Shown one piece after another: positions 43,947-50,323 of a stretch of 64,000 nucleotides of DNA (the stretch's first letter is position 1; each line of letters opens with the position of its first letter). Under the pieces are notes generated by a model. It was not told where the DNA came from and searched no databases. It saw only the letters and a list, made by a program, of their open reading frames with translations. Origin of the DNA: an uncultured Clostridia bacterium (lineage in GTDB: Bacteria > Bacillota > Clostridia > Oscillospirales > Acutalibacteraceae); NCBI GenBank assembly GCA_944384825.1, contig CALWUT010000021.1, positions 4,399 through 68,398 on the forward strand. The letters are read 5' to 3'. The translations under genes were made by a program, and so were the position numbers.

Positions 43947-43974
43947 TTGACAAAACATATATTAAACATATAAT
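43947..43974 (+). promoter_or_regulatory. sigma-A promoter of the glycosylation cluster
   Basis: TTGACA, 16 nt spacer, TATAAT, ~70 nt upstream of 44043. Confidence 0.55.
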
Positions 43975-44042
43975 TATAATCAACATTTATAGAAAGGAGT
44001 TCTAAATTATTAATTGCTAAATTAGTTTGAGGAGGAGTTTTT

Positions 44043-46808
44043 ATGAAGCGTTTTTTTAGTTTAGTTTTACTATTATTCAGTTTTTCGCTTTTACCTATTT
44101 TTGCTTTGGAAGGACAAAAACCAAAAGTTTCAGTTGTAATACCGGTTTATGGAGTTGAAGCTTGGATTAGAGAATGCATGGACAGCTTAATAAATCAGAC
44201 TTTGAAAGAAATTGAAATTATTTGCGTAGATGACGGCTCACCTGATAATTGCGGCGCAATTTTAGATGAATACGCCGCGAAAGACAGTAGAGTTAAAGTA
44301 ATACACCAAGCTAATGGCGGTGTACAGAAAGCTCGAAATTCAGGATTAGATGTTGCGGCCGGAGAATATATAGCTTTGGTAGATGCAGATGACTATGTCG
44401 ATATTCATACTTATGAAACAGCTTATAACTTAGCTAAAAAAGATAATGTTGATATATTAAATTTTCAAGCACGGATATTTGATGACGGAAAAGATAATCA
44501 CATTAACAATATTAATTTTTCTGATGCAAAGGTCGTATCTGCTGAAGATTACATACAGAATAATTACAGGTGTTGGGTTTGGGACAACCTTTTTAAAAAT
44601 GAAATAATCCAGAAAGATAAAATTAGATTCGTACAGGGAATAAAACCGGCAGACGATACATGCTTTACTTACATGGCACTTGGAAGAGCAAAGAGAGTAA
44701 AATCAATACCGGCTACGTTTTATAACTATAGATCAAGACCTTGTGCCCTTTCTCGTATGACTAGCGAAGATGTATTTATTAACAGCCGAAAAATGTTTAA
44801 ACACATTTGCGACAGCTGGCGCTCCGGAGACTGCCTTAGAAATAATGAACACAATTTAATTACCCTTATAGTTCGTTGGGCAATAATTTGGGGAAATACG
44901 CATTTAAGATATGCTCAAGAAATACTGGATTCATTTGGGTCAGATGTGTATAATCCAGCGAATGTAAAGAACTGCCCGGATTACGTGAAACAAGAATTGA
45001 CAAAACTTGAATATTCCGCTGCCAGCAATAAAAATCCGCCGCTGGAAAATGGAGTTTACTGCATATCTAGTGAATTAAGTGGACACTATAAGTGTTTAGA
45101 TATTTCCGCAGGTTCAAAGCAAAGTGGAGCGAATCTCCAATTATGGGAGACTAACGGCACGGCTGCTCAATACTTTGAGGTTGTAAAGCAGAGCGAAGGA
45201 TATTACACCATTAAAGCTTTATGCTCCGGGAAAATGCTTGATGTTAAAAATGCTGATCAAGAAATCGGCACTAATATCCATCAATGGGAGAACAACAATT
45301 CGAAAGCGCAGCATTGGTATATTGTGCCTTGCGGAAACGGATATTTCAATATAATTTCAGAGTGCAATCTTTTAGCAATGGATGTTAAAGGAGCTAACAG
45401 TAATAACGGTACAAATATTCATTGCTGGAATTTAAATGGTACCAAAGCTCAAAAATTCAAGTTTGTAAAATCAAAGTCTAAACACCTGTCTGACGGAGAA
45501 CCTATTTCCATAGCAATGGCAACTGACAAAAATTATGCTTATCCTACAATCGTTTCTATGACATCCATACTTGAAAATAAATATTCAGACACAAAGGTAA
45601 ATTTCTATTTAATGCTTTCCGGAGACTTTGAACAAGATCTTAAAGATAAAATGCTTAATTTACAAATAAAATATTCTAATTGTAGTGTTACACTTATAGA
45701 TATGGAAAATAAAATGAGTTCAGTTTATACCAGCAGACATATAACCAAAGCTGCTTATTATAGATTGATTTTGTCCTCTTTACTTCCTAATTTGGATAAA
45801 ATTTTATATATAGATGTAGACACCATAACACAAGATGATTTAACAAGACTCTTTAATTACGATATAAGTGACTATTATGTTGCAGGAGTTTTAGACGGCA
45901 TCGTACCTATCGGAGCAAGTAAATATACACTTCAACAGTATGTGGCATGGTCAAAAGGATGTAATTCATATGAAGACGTACTTAATATTCCAGATATGAA
46001 TCAATATATAAACTCCGGTATGTGCTTATTTAATTTGAAAAAGATGCGTGATGATAACATAGAAGATAAACTTATAAAAACAGCAGAAGAAAACAGTTTT
46101 GAATGGCATGACCAAGATACTTTAAACGTAGTTTGTTATGGTAAAATCAAGCTTCTGCCACTAGAATACAATGTTATGTCACATTATGTTTTTGAAAATC
46201 AGGCAGATTTACACTCTATAAGGGAAATAAATAAAGCAAAATCCAACCCGTGTATTATTCACTATACGGCAAATAAACCATGGCAAAATCCATTTGCTTA
46301 TCCTCAATCCAATCTATGGTGGAAATACGCTGAAAAAACAAATTGCTTTAAGGATATACAAGAAAAATATTTTATTCAAGATGGAACATATATAATATCC
46401 AGCGCTTTAAACGTAAGTAAAGTCTTGGATATAGCTGGCCGCTCAAACAAAAACGGTGCAAATTTACAGCTATGGGATAAAAATTACACAGATGCACAAA
46501 AATTTGACATTAAATACATTGGAGATAAAAGCTTTAGAATAACTGCCAAATGCTCAAATAAATCGATTGACGTTAGTATGGCAAAAAAAGAAAAAGGTAC
46601 TAATATTTGGCAGTATGAAACCAATAATACAGATGCGCAGAAATGGTATATTACGCCCTGTGGAAATGGGCACTATCAGATAGTTTCTAAATGTAATATG
46701 CTCACCTTGGACGTTAAAGGTGCCGGAACTAAAAATGGAACAAACATTCATTGCTGGGATTCCAATGGTACTAATGCTCAGAAATTTAAGTTTGAGAAAG
46801 TGGGATAA
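44043..46808 (+). CDS. four-domain protein: N-terminal signal/anchor, GT2 glycosyltransferase, ricin-type beta-trefoil lectin, GT8 glycosyltransferase, second ricin-type lectin
   Basis: 921 aa. MKRFFSLVLLLFSFSLLPIFA/LEG. GT2: VSVVIPVYG...CVDDGSPDN...DADDY. Lectin 1 ~45050-45475 (AQYF/AQHW/AQKF QxW-type repeats). GT8: DKNYAYPT...YIDVDT...DQDTLN...HYTANKPW. Lectin 2 ~46375-46805. Confidence 0.8.
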   Translation: MKRFFSLVLLLFSFSLLPIFALEGQKPKVSVVIPVYGVEAWIRECMDSLINQTLKEIEIICVDDGSPDNCGAILDEYAAKDSRVKVIHQANGGVQKARNSGLDVAAGEYIALVDADDYVDIHTYETAYNLAKKDNVDILNFQARIFDDGKDNHINNINFSDAKVVSAEDYIQNNYRCWVWDNLFKNEIIQKDKIRFVQGIKPADDTCFTYMALGRAKRVKSIPATFYNYRSRPCALSRMTSEDVFINSRKMFKHICDSWRSGDCLRNNEHNLITLIVRWAIIWGNTHLRYAQEILDSFGSDVYNPANVKNCPDYVKQELTKLEYSAASNKNPPLENGVYCISSELSGHYKCLDISAGSKQSGANLQLWETNGTAAQYFEVVKQSEGYYTIKALCSGKMLDVKNADQEIGTNIHQWENNNSKAQHWYIVPCGNGYFNIISECNLLAMDVKGANSNNGTNIHCWNLNGTKAQKFKFVKSKSKHLSDGEPISIAMATDKNYAYPTIVSMTSILENKYSDTKVNFYLMLSGDFEQDLKDKMLNLQIKYSNCSVTLIDMENKMSSVYTSRHITKAAYYRLILSSLLPNLDKILYIDVDTITQDDLTRLFNYDISDYYVAGVLDGIVPIGASKYTLQQYVAWSKGCNSYEDVLNIPDMNQYINSGMCLFNLKKMRDDNIEDKLIKTAEENSFEWHDQDTLNVVCYGKIKLLPLEYNVMSHYVFENQADLHSIREINKAKSNPCIIHYTANKPWQNPFAYPQSNLWWKYAEKTNCFKDIQEKYFIQDGTYIISSALNVSKVLDIAGRSNKNGANLQLWDKNYTDAQKFDIKYIGDKSFRITAKCSNKSIDVSMAKKEKGTNIWQYETNNTDAQKWYITPCGNGHYQIVSKCNMLTLDVKGAGTKNGTNIHCWDSNGTNAQKFKFEKVG

Positions 46809-46813
46809 TAATT

Positions 46814-49358: not shown

Positions 49359-49377
49359 AAAATTTCAAAAATAAAAC

Positions 49378-49419
49378 TGCCGTTTACATTTTGTACCATG
49401 TGTAGACGGCAATATTTTG
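49378..49419 (+). terminator. rho-independent terminator after glf
   Basis: TGCCGTTTACA-(12 nt loop)-TGTAGACGGCA, followed by ATATTTTGT. Confidence 0.55.
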
Positions 49420-49510
49420 TATTTATAAAATTCTATATGTTCTTCTACATAATTAATATAAATACTATTTTTTGTGATATAATTAATAAAAAATCTAAGG
49501 AGGCTTTTTT

Positions 49511-50323
49511 ATGAATGGTAAACTTTGTAAGAATTGCCGGTTTCTAATATGTTGCTTTTTATCAACTTTTCTTTTTTGTACATATTCCAATTTATCTTTT
49601 GCACAGGAAAACTCCATAGATAATTTTTCTATGCAAAATTTCCCACAAACAATCGAAAATGAAAGTAAATTCGAATGTGAAGTTAATTGTTGTTTTTCTA
49701 TCGGACAAAATTGTAGAGCTGCGTATCATATCCAAAAACATGGAAAGCGTTTTCAAGCTGCTCCTCTTGATTGGATGCGTGATTACTCTTTAGATACTTG
49801 TCTTCACTTGTTTAAAACTAAATTTTCCGATTTCTTTGAGGAAATACAAGAAATAGGAATTTATTATAACTATGACAAACAAATATATGAAAAGCACATA
49901 AAAGATACTAAGAATAATATCTTATCAATACACCACTTTTCCAGCGAAAATTCTTTAAGTGAAGAACATCAAAAATTTCGAAAAATGATGTTAAATAGAG
50001 CAAGTAAAGTCGATAGAATTTTAGATAAATCTGAATCTATCGCTTTAGTGTATAGTCAAGACTGTGTCGAAAAGGCTTTACCTGATAATCAAAATATGAT
50101 CGAATTTTTAAAAGCGTTTAGTGAAATTTATCCTGACAAAAAAATATATTTGATTGTTATTGAAACTGATAATATTGAAGGAATAAAGAAAAAAGTTACA
50201 TTTGAAGAAGATAATTTTAAAATAATCAAGTTTACTTTTTGGGATTGCGGTCAAGATTGGACTGGCAATAATACATTATGGGATGAAGTAATGAACCATA
50301 TAAAACTTGTGAAAACGTTTTAA
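49511..50323 (+). CDS. DUF1796-family protein (putative papain-like peptidase fold) with signal peptide
   Basis: TAAGGAGG RBS. MNGKLCKNCRFLICCFLSTFLFCTYSNLSFA/QE. CFSIGQNCRAAYHIQKHGKRFQAAPLDWM matches the DUF1796 N-terminal motif. Confidence 0.6.
   Translation: MNGKLCKNCRFLICCFLSTFLFCTYSNLSFAQENSIDNFSMQNFPQTIENESKFECEVNCCFSIGQNCRAAYHIQKHGKRFQAAPLDWMRDYSLDTCLHLFKTKFSDFFEEIQEIGIYYNYDKQIYEKHIKDTKNNILSIHHFSSENSLSEEHQKFRKMMLNRASKVDRILDKSESIALVYSQDCVEKALPDNQNMIEFLKAFSEIYPDKKIYLIVIETDNIEGIKKKVTFEEDNFKIIKFTFWDCGQDWTGNNTLWDEVMNHIKLVKTF

Follow-up and report, generated by a model that had tools for sequence, protein, structure and literature searches.

Organization of the cluster

We examined a 64,000-nucleotide stretch of contig CALWUT010000021.1 from an uncultured Clostridia bacterium of the Acutalibacteraceae (hereafter, the window), in which four open reading frames (ORFs) on the plus strand fill 44043-50323, at the positions given in an original prediction made for this DNA, and encode a putative glycosylation cluster whose products all have predicted N-terminal signal peptides. 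The first gene (44043..46808, +) encodes a 921-aa protein (the GT protein) in which a signal peptide is followed by a family 2 glycosyltransferase domain (GT2), a ricin-type lectin, a family 8 domain (GT8), and a second ricin-type lectin, based on Pfam, PDB sequence matches, and orthologs. The second (46814..48133, +) encodes a 439-aa protein, herein protein 2, with a signal peptide and a GT-A-like putative glycosyltransferase into which a galectin/jelly-roll domain is inserted. The third (48153..49358, +) is the 401-aa UDP-galactopyranose mutase Glf, again with an N-terminal signal peptide (Pfam GLF; PDB 4mo2 and 1i8t), and the fourth (49511..50323, +) encodes a 270-aa DUF1796 protein with a signal peptide (PF08795, E 5e-10). 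Pfam confirmed the domain assignments proposed earlier, namely GT2-ricin-GT8-ricin, Glf, and DUF1796. The enzymes are members of known families, while their predicted export as a set that includes the mutase is an arrangement for which we found no described counterpart.

Predicted signal peptides on all four products

Signal peptides were assigned using a crude heuristic for the n-, h-, and c-regions, together with direct reading of the sequences and comparison across homologs. The heuristic flagged four of four cluster proteins and three of the 61 other ORFs in the window. Each N-terminus begins with two or three lysine or arginine residues (the n-regions being MKR, MKK, MKK, and KxxKxxR), then a hydrophobic core, 13-19 residues long and without charge, and small residues in positions -3 and -1, giving predicted cleavage sites of IFA/L, AKA/E, ANA/F, and SFA/Q. 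Specifically, the peptide of the GT protein, MKRFFSLVLLLFSFSLLPIFA (44043..44105, +), precedes LE and has counterparts such as VKRLFSLIFMLFSFSFLSTLA/A and MKRLLGLFFVLFSFSFFSVFA/M in orthologs; that of protein 2, MKKIISLLTLFFMLVGFSFTAKA (46814..46882, +), precedes EN and is present in all full-length clostridial orthologs; that of Glf, MKKSFSIFLCIFTSLLQCFLICPTNANA (48153..48236, +), precedes FQ and then a 10-residue polar linker; and that of the DUF1796 protein, MNGKLCKNCRFLICCFLSTFLFCTYSNLSFA (49511..49603, +), precedes QE. All orthologs of the GT2-ricin protein and of protein 2 had signal peptides, as did most DUF1796 homologs with a complete N-terminus, P0401 being one without a clear signal peptide. 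In one relative (L035), the GT8-ricin half is encoded by a separate gene with a signal peptide of its own, MKKRFLSFFLIIVLAFNFSFVNLAYA/KN, which is the strongest single argument for selection on the export of each catalytic unit.

The four N-termini are thereby predicted to be Gram-positive-type Sec (signal peptidase I) signal peptides, in keeping with the earlier claim that all four products carry a signal or anchor peptide, and from them we infer Sec-dependent export of the cluster proteins. A neutral or acidic stretch follows the positively charged residues and hydrophobic core in all four proteins, and therefore, by the positive-inside rule, the predicted topology is N-in/C-out, with the catalytic domains outside, as had been proposed. 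Other exported forms were considered and rejected: the lipobox cysteine at +1, twin arginine, and LPXTG that would be expected of lipoproteins, Tat substrates, and sortase-anchored proteins, respectively, were all missing from the sequences, and Pfam found no dockerin in the cluster proteins. Among the three other ORFs flagged by the heuristic was a 531-aa Mbeg1-like protein (34327-35922, -; PF11187, E 1e-57).

A UDP-galactopyranose mutase with an extra N-terminus

The mutase was identified by Pfam (GLF, PF03275, E 3e-83; FAD-binding Rossmann, PF13450, E 2e-22), and its GxGxxG motif reads YDYLIVGSGLSGAV. Residues 39-396 align with residues 2-359 of Escherichia coli Glf (1i8t, E 4e-154), and Campylobacter jejuni UNGM (4mo2) also matches from query residue 39 (E 7e-164). 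Because residue 39 aligns with residue 2 of both structures, the first 38 residues are extra to the canonical fold, as anticipated in the original prediction; where a cytoplasmic Glf would begin with the fold itself, this protein has a 28-residue signal-peptide-like extension and a 10-residue linker before it. The remainder shows 60-70% similarity to these two enzymes, and retains the stretches YTEKQWG, RRLPVR, YRSLKFE, IEHKHF, PYYPVND, and GRLGEYRYFDM of 1i8t and 4mo2, which we take to be substrate-binding. It also has His at the position of Arg59 in the GalNAc-specific UNGM. By sequence, then, Glf is a complete, canonical UDP-galactopyranose (UDP-Galp) mutase. Action on a lipid-linked galactose, along the lines of periplasmic DprE1, was considered and is unlikely, given the 73-76% identity to ordinary UDP-Gal mutases and the retained substrate-binding stretches.

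Among the best 120 Glf homologs, 37 clusters (69-82% identical, 390-411 aa) carry such an extension. It comprises MKK, a hydrophobic core, and V-x-A followed by K or Q at approximately residue 25 in 37 of 38 extended homologs, and the polar linker after it is mostly 10-16 residues long (10-12 at V-x-A sites), so that the form of the extension is kept while its sequence is very divergent. The next-best matches were ordinary Glf proteins of 363-368 aa that start MKYDYLIVGAG and are 73-76% identical to the mutase of the window. In a neighbor-joining reconstruction, extended Glf sequences formed essentially one clade, placed beside cytoplasmic clostridial Glf. The FAD-binding loop reads GSGLSGAV in the exported clade and GAGLFGAV in its cytoplasmic relatives, a clade-specific Phe-to-Ser change.

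The longest glf ORF opens at 48075. The supported start is 48153 (MKKSF...), the one proposed previously, which is preceded by AAAGGTGG and agrees with every ortholog. A Shine-Dalgarno motif lies 5′ of the extended start in all five loci for which DNA was available; in four of these, no in-frame start falls after the hydrophobic core and ahead of the Rossmann strand. It had been recognized at the outset that mis-called starts would undo the proposal if orthologs lacked the extensions; they keep them, and this refutation fails. An artifact in the wider sense, whether from wrongly assigned starts, N-termini that are hydrophobic by chance, or an assembly that is chimeric or contaminated, might be entertained on the grounds that the data come solely from metagenome-assembled genomes (MAGs) and metagenomes and that the longest glf ORF starts elsewhere. 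We nevertheless consider it highly improbable, as dozens of independent assemblies share these extensions, which have Shine-Dalgarno motifs and lack alternative starts, the background in the window is only 3/61 ORFs, and the genes on either side of the cluster (FeoB, RecO, Era, YqfD) are clearly those of a bacterium. The glf frame is open for 26 codons 5′ of the real start (48075-48152), overlapping the end of protein 2, and a longest-ORF gene call would hide the signal peptide within a false N-terminus.

The colocation of a UDP-Galp mutase gene with GT2/GT8 transferase genes is shared with the Klebsiella D-galactan I system (Glf/WbbM/WbbO) and the mycobacterial one (Glf/GlfT1/GlfT2). Cytoplasmic Glf systems of this kind have no signal peptides, act on lipid-linked acceptors at the cytoplasmic face, and are encoded in clusters that include priming transferases and exporters. 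In contrast, every enzyme here has a predicted signal peptide, each transferase has a lectin module, and there is no priming or export gene. A conservative explanation would nonetheless be that the N-terminal peptides are only tethers, anchoring enzymes that work on the cytoplasmic face to make an ordinary galactofuranose (Galf) wall or capsule polymer that is later flipped. Known Glf and Leloir-type (nucleotide-sugar-dependent) GT2 and GT8 enzymes are indeed cytoplasmic, where UDP-Gal, FAD, and reductant are to be found, no exporter is encoded in the cluster, and the mutase is close to ordinary cytoplasmic clostridial Glf at the level of identity given above. We think this explanation unlikely. 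The charge distribution about the hydrophobic core (2-3 K/R before it, a neutral or acidic stretch after it) predicts the opposite orientation, and the small -3/-1 residues at a constant distance in the 37 Glf homologs and in the other three families are what would be expected for cleavage by signal peptidase rather than for an anchor. Moreover, Pfam detected no polyprenyl-phosphate priming transferase, flippase, or polymerase in the cluster, ciliate homologs of protein 2 are type II-anchored, which implies a lumenal location, and a soluble mutase has no obvious need of an anchor.

Catalytic and lectin domains of the GT protein

The GT2 catalytic domain (aa 27-241; 44121..44765, +; PF00535, E 4e-34) matched the bacterial structures 3bcv (E 1e-41), GalT1 (5hea), and chondroitin synthase, and is followed by the first ricin-type beta-trefoil lectin (aa ~333-476; 45039..45470, +; PF14200 and PF00652; ThreeFoil 3pg0, and 3vsf). 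The GT8 catalytic domain (aa 488-763; 45504..46331, +; PF01501, E 2.6e-44) has as its nearest solved relatives WbbM (6u4b, E 1e-23), of the Klebsiella galactan I system and the best of these, and LgtC (1g9r). The second ricin-type lectin (aa ~778-921; 46374..46805, +; PF00652) matched HA-33, a binary-toxin-A-like protein, and 9s11 in the PDB. The DDGS, DxDD, GT8 DxD, HDQD, and KPW motifs and the QxW/F lectin motifs were invariant in five orthologs, and D63-D64-G-S and D116-D117 of the GT2 domain were invariant or nearly so in 10 homologs.

The original prediction had likened the cluster to type II Golgi transferases, in particular the eukaryotic GalNAc-transferases (ppGalNAc-T; GT27 plus ricin). 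The likeness of layout held, since the ~476-aa orthologs in five relatives' loci (L001-L003, L005, L035) consist of an N-terminal anchor, a GT-A domain, and a C-terminal ricin-type lectin, with a topology that, as in the Golgi enzymes, would place catalysis outside the cytosol. The resemblance to Golgi transferases also gains some indirect support from the closest relatives of protein 2 outside the clade, which are type II-anchored ciliate proteins and a protein of an anaerobic fungus. Kinship did not hold, however: ppGalNAc-T was absent from the 37 PDB sequence matches of the GT protein (E <= 1e-3), the top matches being bacterial GT2, and homology to GT27 was rejected on this basis. Because the GT2 and GT8 domains have no specific kinship to ppGalNAc-T, their best matches being bacterial, the catalytic-plus-lectin layout is an analogy rather than a homology, and the resemblance, as judged from these comparisons, is one of form only. 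The Golgi also imports its nucleotide sugars via transporters, for which no equivalent is known on the outside of a monoderm bacterium.

Proteins in which a single collinear match spanned a signal peptide, GT2, and ricin were rare, amounting to ~10 50%-identity clusters in a search of 1.8 billion representative proteins, where the remaining matches were either cytoplasmic GT2 or secreted ricin-repeat proteins. A metagenome scan with the GT2-ricin alignment, which was keyed on the universal GT2 motif, returned 80 generic GT2 loci at 31-56% identity and was uninformative as to copies in ciliates or fungi.

Protein 2 and its relatives in bacteria, eukaryotes, and giant-virus-like contigs

In protein 2 the sole Pfam match was the beta-sandwich PF12248, and no Pfam family matched the catalytic part of its family in the scan. 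The residues DDD246-248 were invariant in 47 aligned homologs. Foldseek searches with an AlphaFold2 model (pLDDT 92.5) returned weak matches to GT-A enzymes (Chlorella virus hyaluronan synthase, GlfT2) and, for the galectin-like beta-sandwich insertion (aa ~84-217, the PF12248 region; 47063..47464, +), matches to galectins and jelly-rolls. The C-terminal half matched the phage glycosyltransferase family PHROG 4447 (E 9e-19), and the best viral structural match was a Pithovirus protein. The model and these matches make protein 2 a probable third transferase, one that incorporates a lectin-like domain, and it points to a previously unclassified family of GT-A-plus-galectin-like enzymes.

Homologs of protein 2 fell into four tiers. 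The first (60-69% identity) has signal peptides and comprises proteins from gut and rumen Clostridia and one from the anaerobic fungus Neocallimastix lanati. The second (41-47%) has a long N-terminal tail with one transmembrane helix (type II), and is encoded on contigs of 1.4-3.6 kb with a G+C content of 13-16%. The third (~35%) has no signal peptide, starts MNIISIFSGRK, and comes from contigs of 271-454 kb, and the fourth (~25%), from Rhizobium and Sinorhizobium, likewise has no signal peptide and starts MAPVILVTFAGR.

The Neocallimastix gene (65% identity; L037-L042) is intronless and sits on a 642-kb fungal scaffold, flanked by retrotransposon remnants. The second-tier contigs (L045-L048) are capped by CCCCAAT/GGGGATT repeats, and because CCCCAAT is the telomere repeat of rumen ciliates (bioRxiv 10.1101/2022.01.05.474053), these contigs are rumen ciliate nanochromosomes. 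The two third-tier contigs examined (L043, L044) encode TBP, eIF4E, PCNA, Pox_A32, and collagen-like genes, and are giant-virus-like for that reason. Outside the clostridial clade, the nearest relatives of protein 2 are encoded on these ciliate nanochromosomes and have type II anchors. In a neighbor-joining reconstruction, the ciliate sequences formed a clade sister to the clostridial clade, and the fungal protein was nested within the latter, a placement which suggests that the gene passed from a bacterium to Neocallimastix. Rumen ciliates are well known to have acquired genes horizontally from rumen bacteria (PMC1413528; bioRxiv 10.1101/2022.01.05.474053). The presence of protein 2 in ciliates, a fungus, and giant-virus-like contigs amounts to a concrete case of inter-kingdom exchange of a secretory-pathway glycosylation gene. 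One of the ciliate nanochromosomes (L045; 3.6 kb, two genes, telomeres at both ends) has a TupA-like ATP-grasp gene (590-1654) beside the protein 2 homolog; the family is typical of bacteria, and this is possibly another transferred gene.

With protein 2 included, each transferase in the cluster has its own lectin module (GT2 and GT8 each with a ricin domain, protein 2 with the galectin-like insert), and this raises the alternative that the cluster encodes secreted, lectin-guided effectors or toxins that enter eukaryotic cells (epithelium, ciliates, or fungi) and use the UDP-galactose of the target in its Golgi or cytosol. Several observations are consistent with such a role, including the resemblance of the second ricin domain to HA-33, a binary-toxin-A-like protein, and a toxin lectin, the occurrence of the protein 2 family in eukaryotic secretory pathways, and the presence of a mutase, the co-delivery of which would be sensible only where UDP-Galp is present and UDP-Galf absent. 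Clostridial exotoxins that consume host cofactors are often Sec-secreted. The TcdA/TcdB family (GT44) also combines clostridial GT-A domains with carbohydrate-binding repeats in released proteins that use a target cell's UDP-sugar. Each of those toxins is, however, one giant polypeptide that includes a translocation and a cysteine-protease domain and has neither a Sec signal peptide nor an accompanying mutase, whereas Pfam found only GT2, GT8, and ricin domains here, and no GT44, cysteine-protease, translocation, or CROP domain. We therefore doubt that the products are toxins: Pfam detected no domain for translocation, pore formation, or autoprocessing, neither Glf nor the DUF1796 protein has a module for lectin binding or uptake, a single compartment would have to receive four or five separate proteins, and the module is widespread in commensal-type MAGs of human, goat, and cattle guts.

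Distribution, mobility, and tail-fiber-like neighbors

The original prediction had called for a search for the same cluster in related genomes. Reading the neighborhoods of ortholog loci in MAGs of uncultured Eubacteriales/Clostridia, we found the module, with its N-terminal extensions kept, in at least eight related genomes at different chromosomal sites (L001-L003, L005, L032-L035, L149, L151). These MAGs came from the Hadza human gut, cattle rumen, and goat reticulum. The gene content varied. Glf was encoded together with GT2-ricin and protein 2 in L002 and L003, and with GT2-ricin-GT8-ricin in L032/33, L149, and L151; L001 and L005 had GT2-ricin and protein 2; and L034/35 had split GT2-ricin and GT8-ricin genes, Glf, and then a secreted-type Peptidase_C1-lectin gene. 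The outer flanks also differed by genome (RecO/Era, ribosomal protein genes, or a phosphatase), and L032 has a tyrosine integrase upstream of the module, L149 a serine recombinase downstream of it. From these comparisons, the module is conserved and probably horizontally mobile.

Convergent to the cluster is a pair of genes whose products have no signal peptides: a 97-aa protein (50385..50678, -; PHROG 5084, E 5e-6) and a 309-aa BppU_N/tail-fiber-like protein (50700..51629, -; PF10651, E 1e-9; PHROG virion structural and tail-fiber families). Copies flank the module in L005 and L032/33, where the 97-aa protein is 59-62% and the BppU_N-like protein 47-51% identical, and both genes are at the same position in L149 and L151. 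The convergent pair (95-97 aa and ~310 aa) thus adjoins the module in five genomes, at 50385-51629 (-) in the window, 11416-12715 in L005, 11252-12407 in L032, 11094-12374 in L149, and 10433-11669 in L151, and because it does so despite differing flanks, it is part of the conserved unit. The tail-fiber-like protein has an IPISQGGTG collar motif.

These neighbors call to mind a remnant of a prophage lysogenic-conversion cassette that would remodel a surface glycan of the lysogen, itself a phage receptor, with the tail-fiber-like gene encoding the matching receptor-binding protein. The convergent pair, the integrase and recombinase nearby, and the match of protein 2 to a family of phage 'moron' glycosyltransferases all accord with it. 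We noted no other phage genes next to the module at the loci examined, however, and single-protein and alignment scans of IMG/VR for close relatives of the GT2-ricin and BppU-like proteins returned generic GT2 domains or nothing, while tblastn against GenBank phages (50,697 records) gave weak partial matches only, without any close relative of the module. Known conversion systems rely on a polyprenyl-phosphate-sugar synthase, a flippase, and a GT-C enzyme. In three-component extracytoplasmic glycosylation (GtrA/GtrB/GtrC; CsbB/GtcA/YfhO; and systems acting with pentofuranose, PMC11127046, or on lipoteichoic acid, PMC5836110), frequently carried by phages, sugars that may be furanoses are likewise attached to glycans beyond the membrane, but undecaprenyl phosphate carries the sugar across and an integral-membrane GT-C enzyme acts outside, whereas here soluble GT-A enzymes and a mutase are the components predicted to be exported. 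Neither the cluster nor the gene tables of the related loci contained a GtrA-like flippase, a GtrB-like polyprenyl-phosphate-sugar synthase, or a GT-C transferase. A conversion cassette therefore seems an unlikely identity for the module; it would supply a role while leaving the supply of the donor unsolved, and it could be combined with an exported Leloir pathway.

A proposed exported Leloir pathway

In textbook accounts, bacterial Leloir chemistry is strictly cytoplasmic and sugars are moved out on lipid carriers. Here we propose, with confidence and doubt about evenly balanced, that the cluster is a mobile, Sec-exported Leloir module that forms Galf outside the cytoplasm of uncultured gut and rumen Clostridia. 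The cluster proteins would cross the membrane unfolded via Sec, after which Glf would bind FAD outside the cell, stay reduced in the anoxic gut, and interconvert UDP-Galp and UDP-Galf beside the transferases. The latter would dock via their lectin domains on a Gal/GalNAc-type glycan and add Galf and an alpha-linked hexose, the part played by the GT8 domain being suggested by its nearness to the galactosyltransferases WbbM and LgtC. Glycan synthesis outside the cell by Sec-secreted Gram-positive enzymes has a parallel in the GH70 glucansucrases and GH68 levansucrases, which differ in being powered by sucrose and having glycoside-hydrolase folds, whereas the enzymes here keep intact nucleotide-sugar donor motifs.

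We know of no way in which a monoderm cell could supply UDP-galactose or reduced FAD outside its membrane, and for this reason the UDP-galactose donor would have to come from elsewhere. The physically most coherent setting would be a space associated with eukaryotes, closed or crowded and containing nucleotide sugars of the host or prey, such as a compartment or interface of a ciliate, protist, or fungus; it would solve both donor supply and the co-localization of four or five secreted proteins, and would also fit the gene-exchange pattern of protein 2. Alternatively, the site could be the bacterium's own wall, with released nucleotide sugars being used.

The eukaryote-associated setting would be analogous to that of the glycogen synthase of Chlamydia trachomatis, GlgA, which is secreted and uses host UDP-glucose in the lumen of the inclusion (Gehre et al. 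2016, PMC4829429). GlgA is the one described bacterial Leloir transferase that acts outside the bacterium, and the two cases are alike in pairing such a transferase, outside the bacterial cytoplasm, with a host nucleotide sugar in a closed host compartment. They differ in that Chlamydia, an obligate intracellular pathogen, employs type 3 secretion, relies on the host transporter SLC35D2, and exports no mutase, while the module described here has Sec-type signals and belongs to a spore-forming gut Clostridium. Literature searches on exported UDP-galactopyranose mutase or a secreted bacterial Leloir transferase returned nothing relevant, and the earlier statement that no bacterial system like this one had been described agrees with the literature searched.

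Several points weigh against an exported Leloir pathway. Nothing in the cluster or the 64-kb window supplies an exporter of nucleotide sugars or FAD, and every characterized Glf and bacterial GT2 and GT8 enzyme is, as far as is known, cytoplasmic. Export itself is predicted from the N-terminal sequences. The genome context looks like that of a free-living, spore-forming bacterium carrying prophages rather than of one confined to the inside of cells, the promoter of the cluster is of the generic sigma-A type, and the conserved tail-fiber-like neighbor is left unaccounted for. With respect to gene exchange, neighbor-joining trees are crude and that of protein 2 does not settle the direction of transfer between ciliates and bacteria, and the flanks of protein 2 at the eukaryotic and viral loci yielded protein 2 alone, with no Glf or GT2/GT8 protein.

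A bolder version, which we advance tentatively and consider somewhat improbable, is that a complete nucleotide-sugar pathway, mutase included, is run outside the cytoplasm within or against a eukaryotic partner (for example, in the food vacuole or symbiosome of a ciliate or other protist, at a fungal interface, or in host mucus), consuming the partner's UDP-galactose to build a Galf coat that might, for instance, resist digestion or serve in self-masking. Export-ready genes would have been exchanged with rumen ciliates and anaerobic fungi, in which the signal peptide would route the products to the Golgi. If true, this case would be the first among monoderm bacteria of a Leloir pathway exported by Sec, as well as a route by which lumenal Galf synthesis could enter eukaryotes.

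There is a substantial chance that the module represents a new kind of system, one of nucleotide-sugar-dependent extracytoplasmic glycosylation. If export is real, then three transferase units and a UDP-Galf-forming mutase are exported, breaking the cytoplasm-only rule of Leloir chemistry and raising the question of which source outside the cell provides UDP-galactose and reduced FAD. Mammals lack Galf, which is immunogenic; therefore, a secreted Galf system in commensals could alter bacterial, dietary, protist, or host glycans, with immune relevance.

Transcription, the DUF1796 protein, and the wider window

Upstream of the first gene, a sigma-70-type promoter (43947..43974, +; TTGACA-16 nt-TATAAT) matches the consensus at 12 of 12 positions, its first base being the start coordinate given for the cluster in the original prediction (43947), and GAGGAGG lies 7 nt 5′ of the start of the first gene. 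The consensus match suggests vegetative rather than sporulation-specific expression of this gene. After glf, a hairpin and U-tract (49371..49420, +; -18.6 kcal/mol, z-score -3.9), a fold which none of 200 shuffled sequences equaled, form a probable intrinsic terminator. Because it ends glf, the genes for the GT protein, protein 2, and Glf look like one operon, probably terminated at this site, with the DUF1796 gene as a separate transcription unit. The separate transcription of DUF1796, the conserved tail-fiber-like pair, and the probable role of protein 2 as a third transferase were all absent from the original prediction.

PF08795, described as a putative papain-like peptidase, matched the DUF1796 protein with 39.9 bits against a cut-off of 23, over profile positions 3-56 of 166. 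Invariant residues of the family are S63, G65, C68, R80, D87, W88, D132, S139, and H141. A fold search of the PDB with an AlphaFold2 model (pLDDT 83) gave no significant match, leaving peptidase activity unsupported, and nothing relevant to DUF1796 was found in the literature. In relatives without DUF1796, a papain-family (Peptidase_C1) and lectin-like gene follows glf (5778-6998 in L034; 5692-6912 in L035); a cysteine-peptidase-like partner thus recurs in different forms.

The window has a G+C content of ~30% and looks like that of a spore-forming Clostridium, with prophages and YqfD. The cluster is preceded by FeoA and FeoB genes and followed downstream by RecO, Era, YbeY-like, DgkA-like, and YqfD genes, the last of these a stage IV sporulation protein (E 1e-108), and one relative's genome encodes DpaA and SpoVT. 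Prophage-like regions with tape-measure-like, structural, replication, and integrase-like ORFs occupy 1-21000 and ~59000-64000, and an Rfam scan of the window found a single tRNA and no rRNA. A tRNA gene (20724-20797, -) is located at the inner edge of the first of these regions. Finally, between feoB and the cluster promoter there are broken ORF fragments at 43098-43625 (...FWYKFVFPNIGAIESENG, ...VECGRWWSEYG, ...GECKWRSEINDVSELNKLIEEVKFF...), which look like a decayed gene and fit an insertion or rearrangement scar at an island boundary.

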